Part shown: positions 52,656 through 59,574 of the stretch, in pieces | Layout: each line of letters starts with the position of its first letter | Numbering within the stretch: position 1 is the stretch's first letter | DNA from: a virus | Taxonomy: Duplodnaviria > Caudoviricetes | Length of the DNA stretch: 64,000 bases | IMG/VR virus record: IMGVR_UViG_3300033068_001747 | Strand: one strand, 5' to 3' | Position numbers and translations under genes: made by a program | The notes under the pieces: model-generated | What the model was told of the DNA's origin: nothing | Database searches by the model: none | The model's input: the letters and a program-made list of their open reading frames with translations, nothing else

Positions 52656-55178
52656 ATGAGGAAATTATTATTAATTCTAATCGGACTTTTTAGTATGACG
52701 GTATCAGCTCAAACTAAAGAGAAAGTAGAGGACCAAACTACTAAAAAAGACTCGGTCGAAAATGTTAAAGAACTACAAGAAGTTGTAGTTGTAGGTAGAG
52801 GAGTTATTGACCTAGCAAAAGAAAGAAAAACTCCTATTGCGGTTTCAACAGTAAAAGCGGTTGAAATACAAGCAAAAGTTGGTACAGCAGACGTTACACA
52901 AGCTTTGGTAAACACACCATCTGTTTATGTTGCAGGACAAGCTGGAGGTTTTGGTGACTCAAGAATCTCAGTTCGTGGGTTCCAACAAGACAATACTGCT
53001 TTCCTATTAAATGGTCAACCAATCAATGGTATGGAAGATGGTAAGATGTACTGGTCTAACTGGTCGGGTATGTCAGATATTGCAAATGCAATACAAATTC
53101 AAAGAGGTTTAGGTTCTTCTAAACTAGCAATCTCATCAGTCGGTGGTACAGTAAACTTTATTACAAGAGCAACTGATATGAGACAAGGTGGATTTTCATC
53201 AGCAGGTGTTGCTAATGATGATTATTTAAAAACAACAGTTGGATATAATACAGGTATTATGGAAAACGGTTTCGGTGCAAGTGTTATGTTATCACATTGG
53301 CAAGGTGATGGTTATTTTGATGGAACAAAAGGTCAAGGTCAAAACTACTTTATCTCATTCGGTTATAAACCAAATGCAAAACATAACTTTAACTTCTTAA
53401 TTACTGGTGCACCACAGCAACACGATCAAAACTTCACAAAAAAGATTTCTGATTACTTAGGTTTCGGCAGAAGATATAATAACAATTACGGTTATTTGAA
53501 TGGTCAATATATATCAGAAAGAGTGAATTTTTATCATAAACCAGTTGCAAACTTTAACTGGGATTATAAAATAAACGATAAGCTAGACTTATCAACAGTT
53601 CTTTATGCATCTTGGGGTAGAGGTGGAGGAACTGGTAACTACGGTAGTGGGAAGAAAAGTGTTTCTCAATTAAATCCTTATACAGGTCAAATGCAAAACA
53701 CTTATATTGATTTTAATCAGATTTATGCTAATAACTCAGCAGATGCTGATGGTATTGGATCTAGTTCAAATTATGCAATTAGATCATCTATGAATAATCA
53801 TGAGTGGTATGGTATTGTGTCAAACTTAAAAAATAAGTTGAATGATAATTTAACATTAAACTTAGGAGTTGATTTAAGAACATATAATGGTGATCACTAT
53901 AGACAAATTACTAATTTTATGGGGTTAAATGGATGGACTGAAAGTAGATTTTTAAGAGATAATAATCATGTTATTCCTAACCCAAATACATTACCAAGTG
54001 CAACCATTACAGTTAATCAATCATTTAGTACTAACCCGTGGTCTGCATTCTTTAATAAAGCAGATGATAGTCAAAAAATTGACTATGACTACAGTGAAAC
54101 AATTTCTTACGGTGGAGTCTTTGGACAATTAGAGTATTCTAAAGATAACTTCTCAACTTTCTTTCAAGGAGCAGTTTCTAATCAAACACACCAAAGATTT
54201 GACTACTATGACTATCAAAAAGAATTTCAAAATTCTGAAAAAGTTTCTAATGTAGGATATAATGTAAAAGGTGGTGCCGCATATAACTTCAATGAAAAAC
54301 ACGTTGTTTATGGAAATGCTGGATATTACTCAAGACAACCATATCATGATAACATTTACTTAAACTTTACTAACCAAGTAAACCCATTAACACAAAACGA
54401 GAAAGTTTTAGGACTAGAAGCTGGTTATACATTCAAATCAAAAGTTTTTACTACTAGCATAAACGCTTATAGAACAACTTGGGAAGATAGAGTCGTAACT
54501 ACATCAAATGTTCAATCTACAAATGGAGTTATTGGAACTACACCAGTTTCTGTAGGTGATGTCATCTTCACATCCAATCAAGGTGTTAGACAAATTCATT
54601 CTGGTGTTGAGTTAGACTTTATATTAAAACCTGTTGCTAAATTAGATATTAAAGGATTTGCATCAGTTGGAAACTGGGAATATAGTGGAAGTGCTACTAG
54701 TAGAAAATTTGATGAAAACTTAAATTTACTAACTGAAGCTGAAACAAATTTAGATGGTGGAAAAGTAGGTGATGCTGCTCAAACAACTTGGGGATTAGGT
54801 GCTAAATATGAATTGTTAACAAGATTCTCTATTGATGCTGATTGGAGAAACTATGATAATTTATATGCAAATGTAGTTGCTAAAGATAACTTACAGTTAC
54901 CTTCTTATGACTTAGTAGATATGGGTATATCATATAAAATGTTAGTAGGTAAAGACAAACAAAATTCTGTAAACTTTAGATTAAATGTAAATAACTTATT
55001 TGATGAAGTTTATTTATCTGAGTTAACTTCTAATATTAAAACTGATGCATTTATCAGTGGAAACTCAGGACCTACATATCAATCTGCAGGTAGAGTTTAC
55101 AAAGGAATCGCTGATGGAAACCAAGGTTTCTTTGGATTTGGAAGAACTTGGAACTTAACATTAAGATATAATTTCTAA
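52656..55178 (+). CDS. TonB-dependent outer membrane receptor
   Basis: LQEVVVVG TonB box, plug motifs (ISVRGF, IQIQRG), C-terminal GRTWNLTLRYNF. Confidence 0.93.
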   Translation: MRKLLLILIGLFSMTVSAQTKEKVEDQTTKKDSVENVKELQEVVVVGRGVIDLAKERKTPIAVSTVKAVEIQAKVGTADVTQALVNTPSVYVAGQAGGFGDSRISVRGFQQDNTAFLLNGQPINGMEDGKMYWSNWSGMSDIANAIQIQRGLGSSKLAISSVGGTVNFITRATDMRQGGFSSAGVANDDYLKTTVGYNTGIMENGFGASVMLSHWQGDGYFDGTKGQGQNYFISFGYKPNAKHNFNFLITGAPQQHDQNFTKKISDYLGFGRRYNNNYGYLNGQYISERVNFYHKPVANFNWDYKINDKLDLSTVLYASWGRGGGTGNYGSGKKSVSQLNPYTGQMQNTYIDFNQIYANNSADADGIGSSSNYAIRSSMNNHEWYGIVSNLKNKLNDNLTLNLGVDLRTYNGDHYRQITNFMGLNGWTESRFLRDNNHVIPNPNTLPSATITVNQSFSTNPWSAFFNKADDSQKIDYDYSETISYGGVFGQLEYSKDNFSTFFQGAVSNQTHQRFDYYDYQKEFQNSEKVSNVGYNVKGGAAYNFNEKHVVYGNAGYYSRQPYHDNIYLNFTNQVNPLTQNEKVLGLEAGYTFKSKVFTTSINAYRTTWEDRVVTTSNVQSTNGVIGTTPVSVGDVIFTSNQGVRQIHSGVELDFILKPVAKLDIKGFASVGNWEYSGSATSRKFDENLNLLTEAETNLDGGKVGDAAQTTWGLGAKYELLTRFSIDADWRNYDNLYANVVAKDNLQLPSYDLVDMGISYKMLVGKDKQNSVNFRLNVNNLFDEVYLSELTSNIKTDAFISGNSGPTYQSAGRVYKGIADGNQGFFGFGRTWNLTLRYNF

Positions 55179-55239
55179 TTATTATCCAAAAAATTTTAAA
55201 AAAGTCGAAACTTAGTTTCGACTTTTTTATATTATACAT

Positions 55240-55485
55240 ATGAGAGAAGAACTTTTACTACAATACGTAAATGAAATTAAGGAAATTTACGATGATAGAT
55301 TAGTTTACATAGACTTTTATACAGAAATCGGACCTATCTTAAACATAAAATTTATTAGTTGTGATTATGAACTAGAATTAAATAGTTTACACTATACAGA
55401 TTGTGATGGTGATCCTATAATAGAAAAATGTAAACAAATATTTATCAAATATAAAAGACATGAAACCTTAAAAAAATTACTTTAA
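55240..55485 (+). CDS. Hypothetical protein with C-terminal tag
   Basis: YKRHETLKKLL. Confidence 0.5.
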   Translation: MREELLLQYVNEIKEIYDDRLVYIDFYTEIGPILNIKFISCDYELELNSLHYTDCDGDPIIEKCKQIFIKYKRHETLKKLL

Positions 55486-55503
55486 AAATTAAAAAAACTT
55501 ATT

Positions 55504-55887
55504 ATGAAAAAACTTTTATTTACATTACTATTATTATTCTCATTTGCATTAGTATCAGCACAAACTGAGTTTACCAGAATCTATACAAAGATCTGTACAA
55601 TTGAAAAAGGTAAGGAACCAAAATGGAATGACGCAGAAAACAAATTTATCTTTAATTATCAAAATGATGCAACTATCAAAATGATATTAAATAACGGCAC
55701 TGTCAAATTCTTTGATCAAGTTACTGATTTAGTTGAAAATAAAACTGAAGGTGGTATTTCTTATCAAGGTGCAGAATTTAAAGAACAAGGAACCTCTTTT
55801 AAGGTCTACCTACAAATATTTGATGACGCAGACTATGGTACAAGAATCATTTTCACTAACGGTACAATGGTTCAATTTACAAACTAA
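55504..55887 (+). CDS. Secreted hypothetical protein
   Basis: Signal peptide ...VSA-Q. Confidence 0.55.
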   Translation: MKKLLFTLLLLFSFALVSAQTEFTRIYTKICTIEKGKEPKWNDAENKFIFNYQNDATIKMILNNGTVKFFDQVTDLVENKTEGGISYQGAEFKEQGTSFKVYLQIFDDADYGTRIIFTNGTMVQFTN

Positions 55888-55927
55888 TCTACAAAAATCT
55901 TGAATATATTAAAAATAAAGTACAAAA

Positions 55928-56173
55928 ATGGAACAAAAAGAACTTAACTACGGAATTATGCCAGGAGAAACTTGGCGACACTACAAAGGTGGTAACTACA
56001 AAATTATCACTCTAGCAAATCATACTGAAACTAAAGAACCTTTAGTTATTTATCAATCTATATCATTTGGATCAATCTATGCAAGACCTTTATCAATCTG
56101 GTGTGATACCGTTGAAAATAGAAGAGGTGGTTTGGAACCAAGATTTGTAAAAGTTGAAAGTGAAAATGAGTAA
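55928..56173 (+). CDS. DUF1653 family protein
   Basis: WRHYKGGNY...HTET.E.LVIYQ...YARPL. Confidence 0.85.
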   Translation: MEQKELNYGIMPGETWRHYKGGNYKIITLANHTETKEPLVIYQSISFGSIYARPLSIWCDTVENRRGGLEPRFVKVESENE

Positions 56174-57446
56174 GATAGATTTATTACTAGGTCTTCAATG
56201 GGGAGACGAAGGAAAAGGAAAAATTGTAGATGTTATTACATCAAAATATGACATAGTTGCAAGATTTCAAGGTGGTCCAAATGCTGGACATACAATCTAC
56301 TTTGATGGTAGAAAACATGTTTTAAGAACTATACCATCAGGTGTATTCAATAAAAATACAATAAATATAATTGGTAATGGTGTTGTACTTGATCCAGTTG
56401 TATTTAAACAAGAAGTTGAAGAACTACTTAAATTTGATAAAACTATTAAAGATAGATTACTTATCTCAAGAAAAGCTCATCTTATTTTTCCAACACACAA
56501 ACTTTTAGATGCTACATCAGAAGCAGCCAAAGGTAAAGATAAAATTGGCTCTACTCTTAAAGGTATTGGACCTACTTATATGGACAAAACTGGTAGAAAT
56601 GGTATCAGAGTTGGCGATTTAGAATTACCAGACTTCCATAAAAGATTTGCTAAGTTAGAAAAGAAACATGATGAACTAATTGATTGGGGTGTTATTGAAC
56701 AATTTAACACTAACTATGATGATATGCAAGATGAATTTTTAGATGCAATTACTTATCTAAAACAATTTACATTTATCGATAGTGAAGAATATCTATTTCA
56801 AGCTCAACAACAAGGAAAATCAATTCTTTGTGAAGGAGCTCAAGGTTCTTTATTAGATGTTGACTTTGGTACTTATCCATTTGTTACTTCTTCTAATACA
56901 ACTGCCGCAGGAGCTTGTACTGGTTTAGGAATTGCCCCTAATAAAATACAAGATGTGTTTGGTATATTTAAAGCATACACAACAAGAGTTGGTAGTGGTC
57001 CATTTCCAACTGAATTGTTTGATGAAACAGGTGAGAAAATGGCTAAAATTGGTAATGAATTTGGATCTGTTACTGGTAGAGCAAGAAGATGTGGTTGGTT
57101 AGATTTAGTTGCGTTAAAATACACTTGTCAAATTAATGGTGTAACTGAACTAATGATGATGAAAGCAGACGTACTATCAGGATTTGACAATATAAAGGTT
57201 TGTATAGGTTATAAATATAAAGGTGAAGTAATTACTCACTTTCCTTATAACATTGAACCAGAGAACTTAGAACCTATCTATTTAGGGTTTAGTGGTTGGT
57301 CAGAAGACTTAACTGGAATTACAGATTATAAGGATTTACCAGATGAACTAAAAGAATATATAGAGTTTATTGAAAAAGAAACAGGAATAAATATAACACT
57401 TGTTTCTGTGGGTCCAGATAGAAAACAAACAATAAGAAAAAATTAG
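56166..57446 (+). CDS. purA: Adenylosuccinate synthetase
   Basis: QWGDEGKGK, GGPNAGHT, GTYPFVTSS, GRARRCGW. Confidence 0.97.
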   Translation: MSKIDLLLGLQWGDEGKGKIVDVITSKYDIVARFQGGPNAGHTIYFDGRKHVLRTIPSGVFNKNTINIIGNGVVLDPVVFKQEVEELLKFDKTIKDRLLISRKAHLIFPTHKLLDATSEAAKGKDKIGSTLKGIGPTYMDKTGRNGIRVGDLELPDFHKRFAKLEKKHDELIDWGVIEQFNTNYDDMQDEFLDAITYLKQFTFIDSEEYLFQAQQQGKSILCEGAQGSLLDVDFGTYPFVTSSNTTAAGACTGLGIAPNKIQDVFGIFKAYTTRVGSGPFPTELFDETGEKMAKIGNEFGSVTGRARRCGWLDLVALKYTCQINGVTELMMMKADVLSGFDNIKVCIGYKYKGEVITHFPYNIEPENLEPIYLGFSGWSEDLTGITDYKDLPDELKEYIEFIEKETGINITLVSVGPDRKQTIRKN

Positions 57447-57478
57447 GAATATAAAAAAATAAGTTATACATTTGCATT

Positions 57479-57523
57479 ATGAAAAATAGATTTAATTTTA
57501 ATGTCCATTGTAGCCATAGATAA
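57479..57523 (+). promoter_or_regulatory. Candidate His leader peptide MKNRFNFNVHCSHR* with overlapping hairpin
   Basis: uORF right after a TACATTTG promoter; two CAT codons; hairpin tgtagcc...ggctata (57509-57536). Confidence 0.55.
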
Positions 57524-57541
57524 TATCTGGGCTATAAAACT

Positions 57542-58204
57542 ATGTACAAAAAATTAAAACTAAAAACAATGGAAATTAAATTAAAAAATACCTATAAAGG
57601 AACAAGAATAATATTTGCTGAAACTGCAAAAAGAAAAAGAACTATTTTGAACCAAATGATTGAAATACTTGAATCATATGGTTACCAAGAAATGATGATT
57701 CCTGTCATTCAATTATCTGATACATTTGCTAAAAAAGTTGGTGAAGAAAACAATAACATGATGTACACTTTTACTGATAGAGGTAATAGAGACATCTGTT
57801 TAGCACCAGAATATACTGCTGTTGTGCAACAACTTGCAAATGAAACATTCAAAATGACTAAAGATGTAAAACTCTTTTACATTGGAGAATGTTTTAGAGG
57901 CGAAAGACCTCAGGCATCAAGATGGAGACAATTTACACAATTTGGTGTTGAAGTAATCAATCCAAGAAAAGATTACACAGATGAATTGTTAGAAATAGCA
58001 AAGAAACTTATTGAAATAGTCACAGATAACTATGAAGTTAATTTAGATGCAACTAGAGGACTTGACTACTATACTGGTGGTAAAGGATTTGAGATTTCTT
58101 GTCCACAATTAGGTGCAGCCAAACAAATTTGCGGAGGTGGCTCTTATCAAGGAGGAGTGGGACTGGCTATAGGTGTGGATAGATTACTGAATTGTAACCA
58201 ATAA
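57542..58204 (+). CDS. hisS: Minimal histidyl-tRNA synthetase-like catalytic domain containing no His
   Basis: KGTR, LAPEYTA, FRGERPQASRWRQFTQFGVE, RGLDYYTG, GGGSY, G.AIGVDRL. Confidence 0.85.
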   Translation: MYKKLKLKTMEIKLKNTYKGTRIIFAETAKRKRTILNQMIEILESYGYQEMMIPVIQLSDTFAKKVGEENNNMMYTFTDRGNRDICLAPEYTAVVQQLANETFKMTKDVKLFYIGECFRGERPQASRWRQFTQFGVEVINPRKDYTDELLEIAKKLIEIVTDNYEVNLDATRGLDYYTGGKGFEISCPQLGAAKQICGGGSYQGGVGLAIGVDRLLNCNQ

Positions 58205-59028
58205 GTATTTTTAACCCTTTTTTGTAAACCTCTACAACATAAAGATATTTTATATGGATCTAGATTGGTGAGTTTAGCTGCTTCATAGTAACTATTAAAC
58301 TCACCAATTTTAGTACCATCCAAATAGAAACCTACTACCTTTGACTTCATTGAGTCATGTGATTTTATATTTCTTGTATTAATCTCTTCTTTACTTAGAT
58401 AGTCTCCATGATTCTTAAATATATGAGATTTCACTATATTAAACTCTCCACTTATACAAAGTCTAATTGATTTTGCTTTAGTATTAGTTTCTCTTTCCGC
58501 TTCTCTTATAGACTTGAAGGTTTTTAAGAATTTACCATTCTTGTCATAAAAATCTACCTTTATACATCTTTTACTATTTTTAAGTTTAAGTATTGTCTCT
58601 TCTGACAGTTTATTTCCTAAATTTATAGTTCTTAGTTTTTTCCTTGTCTCTTCACTTACTTTTTTACCAGTATTACTAAGTCTAATCTTTTCTATTGTTT
58701 CTCTTGAACATCTAATTTTACCATAAGGACTTGTTGGTTCTATATTAAATCCAAAATTTTTATCATGTGTATTTAAAATATTACACCACCAGTTTTCCAT
58801 ACTAGGTAAAGATTCAATTAAGTAATCATCTATTATATCAAATGAAAAATTACCATTATATTTGTTCCAAGAATTTTGCATATGTATATTAGGATGCCTA
58901 CACTCTCTTAGCTGTGATTTATGTTTAGAAAGCCTTTCTTTACAATTTACACTCCTGCCTATATAGTGCTTATTACTTGATAAACAAGTTATTATATAGA
59001 TACCAGAAATTTTATTTTTATATGCCAA
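58147..59028 (-). mobile_element. GIY-YIG homing endonuclease with NUMOD3/NUMOD1 repeats
   Basis: SGIYII...HYIGRS; SEETRKKL; FKSIREA. Confidence 0.85.
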
Positions 59029-59280: not shown

Positions 59281-59574
59281 ATGGATAATCAACCAACTTA
59301 TAAAATAAATGGATTAGAAAGACGTAAGGTAAAGAAACATTTAGTAGAATTAAAATCTTTCGTTAAAAACTTTTGGTACTATCATAATTTAGATAAAGAT
59401 ATGTATGCTTTCTACTCACCAAATGATAAATCTCAAATGTCTGATACAAATGCACAACTATTATATGATAAAAAGATTTTAGAAATTGAAGAAATTAGTT
59501 TAAAATTAGATGAACCTTATAAATCAATTTCTGATATAAGAAATGAAAAAATAGAAAGTATAGTTAATGAGTAA
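59281..59574 (+). CDS. Hypothetical protein with C-terminal tag
   Basis: DIRNEKIESIVNE. Confidence 0.55.
   Translation: MDNQPTYKINGLERRKVKKHLVELKSFVKNFWYYHNLDKDMYAFYSPNDKSQMSDTNAQLLYDKKILEIEEISLKLDEPYKSISDIRNEKIESIVNE

Follow-up and report, generated by a model that had tools for sequence, protein, structure and literature searches.

In the his leader of Escherichia coli and Salmonella (hisL, RF00514), as in trpL, leuL and thrL, a short open reading frame (ORF) rich in cognate codons senses the charged tRNA via a stalled ribosome. The pheST attenuator of E. coli (pheM leader, RF01859) precedes a synthetase gene, and a shortage of charged tRNA raises the expression of the synthetase. In ermC, cat and cmlA, and also in secM-secA and mifM-yidC2, a ribosome stalled in an upstream ORF (uORF) disrupts a pairing that hides the downstream start. 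Here, we describe a His-codon leader in front of the gene for a small, His-free protein related to histidyl-tRNA synthetase (mini-HisRS). It lies in a 64,000-nt stretch of viral DNA (hereafter the window, whose positions are used as coordinates), which is the second half of the 132-kb IMG/VR virus record IMGVR_UViG_3300033068_001747. The leader is homologous to His-rich leaders that precede related genes together with a terminator. In the window no terminator was found between 57300 and 57700, and the leader is predicted to pair with the start region of the synthetase gene. In a limited literature search, no description of a phage synthetase controlled by a leader-peptide switch was found.

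The region is composed of the following elements:

57467-57474, plus strand: Bacteroidota -7 promoter box TACATTTG (TAnnTTTG), predicted transcription start at 57479
57479-57523, plus strand: leader ORF MKNRFNFNVHCSHR, 14 codons, stop codon TAA at 57521-57523
57490-57512, plus strand: anti-start segment (leader codons 5-11), pairs with 57565-57586 in the predicted fold
57511-57534, plus strand: local hairpin P1, TAGCCATAGAT-AAT-ATCTGGGCTA, with no U tract after it
57535-57568, plus strand: A-rich spacer, contains a non-conserved in-frame ATG at 57542
57565-57586, plus strand: mini-HisRS translation initiation region, predicted to be sequestered by the leader
57569-58204, plus strand: mini-HisRS, 211 aa, His-free, class II catalytic core only

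In the following, L-numbers (L005, L074 etc.) denote loci of related mini-HisRS genes. Leaders of the window type are called type A, a related terminator-less form (L054, L055) is called A', and the combination of a His-rich leader with a terminator is termed canonical.

An earlier note on this DNA had described the 14-codon uORF with two CAT codons (His10 at 57506-57508, His13 at 57515-57517), the TACATTTG box just upstream and a hairpin with the second CAT in its 5' arm, and all of these are present. The hairpin starts right after the first CAT. P1 has one bulged A and carries the stop codon in its loop. Folding of 57447-57560 resulted in -17.2 kcal/mol (z -2.2), and the 123-nt context (57478-57600) reached z -3.9, with none of 200 shuffles folding as well.

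Read from ATG 57542, the ORF (57542-58204) encodes 220 aa without a single His, as the note had stated. Based on the alignments, the true synthetase start is ATG 57569 with a product of 211 aa, because all homologues start at the equivalent position and ATG 57542 is lost in some relatives. In detail, 88 of 88 distinct homologues (54-100% identity) begin with M-E/K/D-I, corresponding to MEIK at 57569, and ATG 57542 reads ATA in L033-L038, which retain the leader. ATG 57542 was therefore rejected as the start. These results bear directly on the mechanism proposed in the note, in which hairpin 57511-57534 occludes ATG 57542 of the 220-aa frame until a stalled ribosome melts it. The hairpin is real, holds the second CAT in its 5' arm and ends 7 nt before this in-frame ATG (about 6 nt in the note). 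However, the real start lies 35 nt past the hairpin, the homologues all align from MEIK, the upstream ATG is not conserved in copies that keep the leader, and many type A copies have a weaker 3' arm (GGGCTA to GGGTAA in L026-L038, where one pair becomes G-U and one is lost). We thus consider occlusion by the local hairpin very improbable. The uORF, ATG 57542 and the true start at 57569 share one frame with only the TAA at 57521 in between, and read-through of this stop codon would yield an N-terminally extended protein.

In Flavobacterium johnsoniae, the -7 box spans T-12 to G-5 (PMC6847099); with the G of the box at 57474, this spacing places +1 at A 57479, where the uORF AUG begins, and the leader ORF is predicted to be leaderless. 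Type A copies and most canonical relatives all have 4 nt between the box and the leader ATG. TAnnTTTG shows no enrichment over the entire window (125 matches compared to 113 +/- 10 in shuffles), and the box is informative by its fixed position, not by its frequency. Because of the promoter type, the host probably belongs to the Bacteroidota. In F. johnsoniae, which lacks Shine-Dalgarno (SD) sequences, structure near the start codon tunes initiation (PMC6847099), and leader-peptide attenuation was inferred for amino-acid operons in a Flavobacterium host transcriptome (PMC9723704).

To place the leader in its family, we compared about 85 distinct upstream regions of mini-HisRS genes, which show the following contexts:

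No leader, gene within an operon: about 35 distinct loci
His-rich leader plus terminator (canonical): about 23 distinct loci
tRNA immediately 5' (in four loci a tRNA-His, 16-22 nt away): about 10 distinct loci
Window-type leader (type A): 5-6 distinct loci
tRNA-like gene: 3 distinct loci
Related terminator-less form (A'): 2 distinct loci

In the canonical loci, the TAnnTTTG box is followed by a short His-rich ORF, mostly 4-7 nt further on (4 nt in the majority, 17 nt in L088). Examples of the leader peptides are MKMKTTYKLHHHTEKSGS, MKNITNIITHHH[SP]VHLG, M..NIFNVHHHFDRIDLGVH, MKSINTSFNVHHHPVMG (L074), MKNINISLFNLHHHP, MITINNIFVHTHPVHLGQ, MKTLNINTHFHFHF.., MKTMTTHTHHGTH, MKHLHTYKIMIDWG and MSYVSKHKHFSKFHFW.., with His runs such as ..KLHHH.., ..NVHHH.. 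and ..IFNVHHHF.. (L070, L075). Together, 17 distinct homologous leaders contain 54 His among 352 residues (15%), and the window leader has two in 14 codons, compared to a background of 1.6% in the long ORFs of the window. The presence of leaders with HHH runs at this position in related phages, with the same box ahead of them and the mini-HisRS gene behind, supports the interpretation of the uORF as a genuine relative of His-codon leader peptides.

Behind the canonical leaders, a G+C stem with T5-7 ends 30-35 nt before the mini-HisRS ATG (about 23 distinct loci). The predicted folds consist of a hairpin right behind the His codons (1:2) and the terminator (3:4); when the 3' arm of the terminator was withheld in folding, region 2 paired with region 3 in many loci. 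The 2:3 antiterminator duplex beats 95% of the shuffles in 15 of 16 canonical loci tested. Region 2 ends -9 to +11 nt from the leader stop in 12 of the 16 and 27-45 nt before the stop in four longer leaders. The arms vary by lineage yet stay complementary (ATCTGGG/CCCAGAT, TGGGTTGA/TCAACCCA, GGGTGAG/CTCACCC and AGTTCAGG/CCTGAACT). As the canonical loci show the textbook his/trp design, we are highly confident that the His-sensing attenuator is real at the level of the family.

These loci have the full 1:2, 2:3 and 3:4 logic and the U-tract terminator in common with hisL. In contrast to hisL, the leader is phage-borne, is driven by the TAnnTTTG promoter of the Bacteroidota with a predicted leaderless leader ORF, and controls a synthetase-like gene instead of a biosynthetic operon. 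It also has no Rfam match: a scan of the window region and of L004, L005, L011 and L022 detected neither His_leader (RF00514) nor another leader family, even at E<=1-10. The pheST system shares with the phage loci the position of a leader-peptide attenuator ahead of an aminoacyl-tRNA synthetase gene. It differs in amino acid and phylum, and its output is a terminator, whereas the window copy appears to act on translation initiation.

It could be argued that the window itself uses classical transcription attenuation, with hairpin 57511-57534 as the terminator. Its 3' arm, ATCTGGGCT, indeed has the same sequence as the 3' arm of the terminators in L005, L007 and L047, and its separation from the start codon is comparable (about 30-35 nt). 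However, the stem is followed by ATAAAACT and not by a U tract, and a terminator scan of 57300-57700 was negative. No upstream segment in the window is complementary to the P1 5' arm, leaving nothing able to form an antiterminator as in the canonical loci and hisL. Furthermore, P1 corresponds in position to the 1:2 hairpin seen in L074 and L088, and its loop contains the stop codon. Termination at P1 is, in our opinion, extremely improbable.

The type A leader rather resembles a shortened version of the canonical one. It shares TTTAATGTCCAT (FNVH) with the L074-type leaders and is about 55 nt shorter than canonical leaders, with 90 nt between leader ATG and gene ATG compared to 122-195 nt (most 139-151). 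Based on the shared FNVH, the short distance, the lack of terminator and antiterminator, and the likeness of P1 to the 1:2 hairpin, we read type A as a putative canonical element minus spacer, terminator and U tract.

Within type A, the leader is well conserved. The peptide is identical or shows only an F5I exchange in L023-L038, L041, L049 and L157-L164. Both His codons are kept among the type A copies, and the second one (57515) is retained in all of them. Over 65 nt from box to hairpin, identity is 94-100% among genomes whose coding sequences (CDSs) are 66-87% identical at third positions. This 65-nt module, including every leader codon, shows 0-4 differences compared to 13-22 expected from synonymous-site divergence. 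The spacer is also conserved among type A copies (31-38 of 36-38 positions). Just 5' of the promoter, the DNA has diverged (13 of 19 positions identical between window and L031, 13 of 23 between window and L038), and in both pairs both flanks of the module have diverged. Three different genes precede the module, namely purA, a divergent gene and a Laminin_G_3 gene that has a terminator of its own, and the module is also present on 587-kb and 640-kb contigs.

In the predicted structure, the leader masks the start of the synthetase gene. The core of the helix is formed by UCCAUUGU (57504-57511) and ACAAUGGA (57566-57573), which places the CAU of His10 opposite the start AUG as its pairing partner. 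The leader:start duplex reaches -15.3 kcal/mol (RNAduplex). Shuffled leaders were equal or better in 2 of 1000 and 0 of 500 cases, shuffled start regions in 6 of 1000, and genomic 45-mers of the window in 0 of 1413. The pairing is part of the minimum free energy (MFE) structure of 57478-57660 and of the centroid of 57478-57600, and in folding of the free RNA the probability that the start AUG is unpaired is 0.01-0.05. A start mask would thus be provided by 57490-57512 with 57565-57586, and not by the local hairpin, which is not beside the real start.

This pairing is not a family-wide feature, as 14 of 16 terminator-bearing leaders pair with their start no better than shuffles (5% level). The exceptions are L088 (6 of 500 shuffles as good) and, as a borderline case, L075 (56 of 500). 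L088 combines a full terminator switch with a 9-bp leader:start pairing (CAUAUUCGU with ACGAAUAUG, -11.5 kcal/mol, opening energy 9.1 kcal/mol) and may be under dual transcriptional and translational control. The A' form (L054, L055; uORF MRNQAKVHCFLS) has a different intervening stem, and again UCCAU pairs with the main AUGGA. We rejected the opening energy as a clean discriminator: it is 6.2-7.8 kcal/mol for type A and A' and 1-4 for most others, but high in L074, L088 and L110.

A ribosome on the leader is predicted to release the start. With His10 or His13 in the A site, an assumed footprint of 29 nt covers the anti-start core, and the opening energy of the region from -20 to +13 drops from 6.2 kcal/mol in the free RNA to 1.1-1.2 kcal/mol. 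Taken together, these results suggest the following scenario. The host-type promoter TACATTTG would begin the mRNA at the AUG of the 14-codon leader ORF. The module would derive from a his-type transcription attenuator, as still present before orthologues in many related huge phages. In the type A lineage, spacer, terminator and U tract would have been lost, and leader codons 5-11, including His10, would pair with the start region. In the free mRNA, the mini-HisRS start codon would be hidden; a ribosome reading the leader would open the pairing, and stalling at His10 or His13 when charged tRNA-His is scarce would keep the start open. The enzyme could then be produced during His-tRNA shortage, because it contains no His codons.

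The window copy most likely works in a translational mode, since it has no terminator. Thus, the translational attenuator proposed in the note survives as a mode of action, although not in its mechanics, which relied on the local hairpin and the non-conserved ATG 57542. The proposed logic is that of translational attenuation in ermC, cat and cmlA. In contrast to these systems, stalling would be caused by scarcity of His-tRNA(His) while ordinary His codons are read, instead of by a drug or a nascent-chain arrest peptide, and AUG and flanks would be masked directly, with no Shine-Dalgarno sequence involved. Whether the window copy still senses His, now at the level of translation, is in our judgement evenly balanced, and transcription start, leader translation, stalling and regulatory outcome are all deduced from sequence and folding. 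As a whole, a self-contained "histidine-starvation rescue" module, with its sensor rewired from a terminator switch to start-codon masking, is a tentative proposal that we would put somewhat below an even chance. What is new in the window is the terminator-less, start-masking translational form.

Several observations weigh against a His-sensing switch of this kind. In the 123-nt fold, a competing leader:spacer structure is the MFE (-20.2 compared to -18.6 kcal/mol), and the leader:start helix is AU-rich. No covariation was seen in this helix, because the type A copies are near-identical and all those compared are identical there. Opening energies of 6-12 kcal/mol in L074, L088 and L110 indicate that a closed start also occurs outside type A. 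An anti-AUG in frame is necessarily a His codon, and His10 alone is no proof of His sensing. Leaderless mRNAs account for only 5.5% in Flavobacterium (PMC9723704). Type A has only two non-adjacent His codons, compared to HHH runs in the relatives. Finally, upstream modules recombine (L049 and L027 are identical 5' of the promoter, and their CDSs have diverged), type A is not monophyletic on the CDS tree, and recombination, not selection, explains part of the non-coding identity.

The last two points would also be expected if the leader were a relic that was left after deletion of the terminator, in front of a constitutive gene. The module would then have been kept for its promoter, transcription start and A-rich start region, and uORF and His codons would no longer sense anything. 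The lack of terminator and antiterminator is in agreement with this idea, as are the identity values inflated by the swapping of upstream modules and the about 35 related loci that express the gene in operons, without any leader. A relic, however, hardly accounts for 0-4 instead of 13-22 differences in a 65-nt module whose flanks have diverged in the comparisons with L031 and L038. The same is true for a leader:start complementarity that is far above chance here and absent in most terminator-bearing leaders, and for the second terminator-less lineage (L054, L055), which masks the AUG by another route. We regard a relic as unlikely, but as a serious alternative.

Alternatively, unmasking could be independent of His: any ribosome on the uORF would open the start, the output would follow the capacity for translation or the age of the mRNA, and the presence of His codons would be incidental. 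According to the folding, a ribosome at any of codons 5-14 would open the pairing (2.0 kcal/mol with the stop codon in the A site, compared to 6.2 for free RNA), and CAU is the obligatory complement of AUG. On the other hand, the leader is homologous to leaders with HHH runs, and the CAT at 57515 is not needed for the anti-AUG helix and yet is retained in all copies. The family-wide absence of His from the enzyme would make sense only if a shortage of His-tRNA matters. The type A variant L042 suggests coupling, since its uORF runs across the main start. Overall, a switch blind to His appears rather unlikely to us. In L042, the leader stop TAA is changed to TAT and the spacer contains an extra A, so the uORF continues for 33 codons and does not close until 8 nt beyond the start codon of mini-HisRS, an arrangement that possibly represents termination-reinitiation.

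While the note had rated the absence of His as modest evidence, the trait is much stronger at the family level: 78 of the 88 distinct mini-HisRS proteins contain no His, and the distant copy of Sinorhizobium phage Phosso also has none. The His-free subtree comprises 13.4 substitutions per site, over which about 45 substitutions to His would be expected at the background rate of 1.6%, but none was seen. Avoidance of His is a family trait and remains significant even if the expected gains were overestimated ten-fold. It fits a gene that is needed when charged tRNA-His is short.

If the proposed mechanism is true, huge phages sense how well one tRNA is charged and react by producing an enzyme of their own; phage-borne synthetases have so far only been catalogued. 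The family would also provide a natural series in which one attenuation mechanism turns into another within one gene family, and terminator-type and start-masking leaders before orthologous genes are a testable case of a switch that changes its output layer. Translational control is poorly understood in the SD-less Bacteroidota, and the predicted leaderless leader ORF offers a simple experimental handle.

Mini-HisRS matches Pfam tRNA-synt_His with 3e-25 and belongs to a family of 1547 homologues (E<=1e-5). The family profile aligns to residues 6-148 and 249-315 of the 420 residues of Staphylococcus aureus HisRS (1qe0). As the alignment is restricted to these parts, the insertion domain and the C-terminal anticodon-binding domain are missing, and the protein ends just past motif 3. 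Motifs 1-3, RGLDYY and the GGG.Y loop are invariant in the family and common to bacterial class IIa HisRS (1KMM/1KMN, 1QE0, 1ADJ/4RDX). The invariant residues are P45, FRGE (R110), R118, R120, Q124, E128, R163-GLDYY, G189-G191, Y193 and R205. In contrast to the bacterial enzymes (about 420 aa), mini-HisRS has only 211 aa, no insertion and anticodon-binding domains, FTQ instead of the usual FHQ in motif 2, and no His residues. The AlphaFold model (AF2; predicted TM score, pTM, 0.73) has its best structural matches in the HisRS chains 1kmn and 1qe0.

Identity as the paralogue HisZ was rejected, because HisZ chains (1z7m, 3od1) match at only 1e-8 compared to 2e-32 for HisRS chains, the catalytic residues, including the arginines, are retained, and HisG (PF01634) was not found in the 132-kb record, which is a genome fragment. 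Mini-HisRS presumably charges tRNA-His. Like the engineered HisRS urzymes (PMC3060492), it is a cut-down catalytic core; this natural 211-aa core is their natural counterpart and a clean case of cognate amino-acid avoidance.

Judged by its closest relatives, the window DNA is part of a huge phage genome. In the databases, the phages most closely related to it are the uncultured huge phages LR745206 (634 kb) and LR756502 (642 kb), and near-identical gene neighbourhoods were also found on 587-kb and 640-kb contigs. The two database phages are among the huge phages with synthetases (Al-Shayeb et al., 2020; PMC7162821) and carry an orthologue with 75-77% identity beside tRNA arrays; unlike in the window, it is part of an operon without leader. 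IMG/VR labels the record "provirus". A bacterial origin or provirus flank was rejected, as the purA / DUF1653 / mini-HisRS neighbourhood recurs on the 587-640-kb phage-like contigs and the mini form occurs on only three contigs of metagenome-assembled genomes (MAGs) among 185,579 species-representative genomes. The distribution of homologues indicates that the mini-HisRS family is essentially phage-borne.

The genes around the locus are:

52656-57446: TonB-dependent receptor-like ORF (840 aa, signal peptide), DUF1653 and full purA
58147-59028, minus strand: GIY-YIG/NUMOD homing endonuclease, between mini-HisRS and a 97-aa ORF (59281-59574)
59637: tRNA-Cys, downstream of the homing endonuclease

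Upstream of the leader, purA (adenylosuccinate synthetase) ends at 57446 and is accompanied by the DUF1653 gene; this pair occurs together with mini-HisRS on several related contigs. On the other side, the 3' end of the homing endonuclease gene is antisense to mini-HisRS and overlaps its last 58 nt. The endonuclease is shared with L023-L025 and not found in L026-L038, L157 and L158, where the 97-aa or a DUF2452 gene directly follows mini-HisRS.

The only tRNA genes in the 132-kb record are two copies of tRNA-Met and the tRNA-Cys. In other loci, the end of a tRNA-His gene precedes the mini-HisRS start by 16-22 nt (L107, L109, L118, L155), or such a gene is located within 2 kb (L001, L013 and Sinorhizobium phage Phosso). 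In L039 (1910-1985), and also in L040, L043 and L006/L120, a tRNA-like gene with its own TATCTTTG box lies 12 nt before mini-HisRS. In L039 it scores 24.7 bits against the Rfam tRNA model, which is below the threshold, and was not called by ARAGORN. The loci with this gene are close relatives (87-95% protein identity). The gene stands in place of the His leader and may be a tRNA mimic. Just 5' of it, L039 contains the 3' end of a GOLLD RNA (1750-1787; RF02032 positions 379-416, E 1.5e-6, cut by the end of the stretch). A more distant relative, L022/L153, carries a group I intron (2135-2393; RF00028, 91.8 bits) beside a tRNA match, about 600 nt 5' of mini-HisRS.

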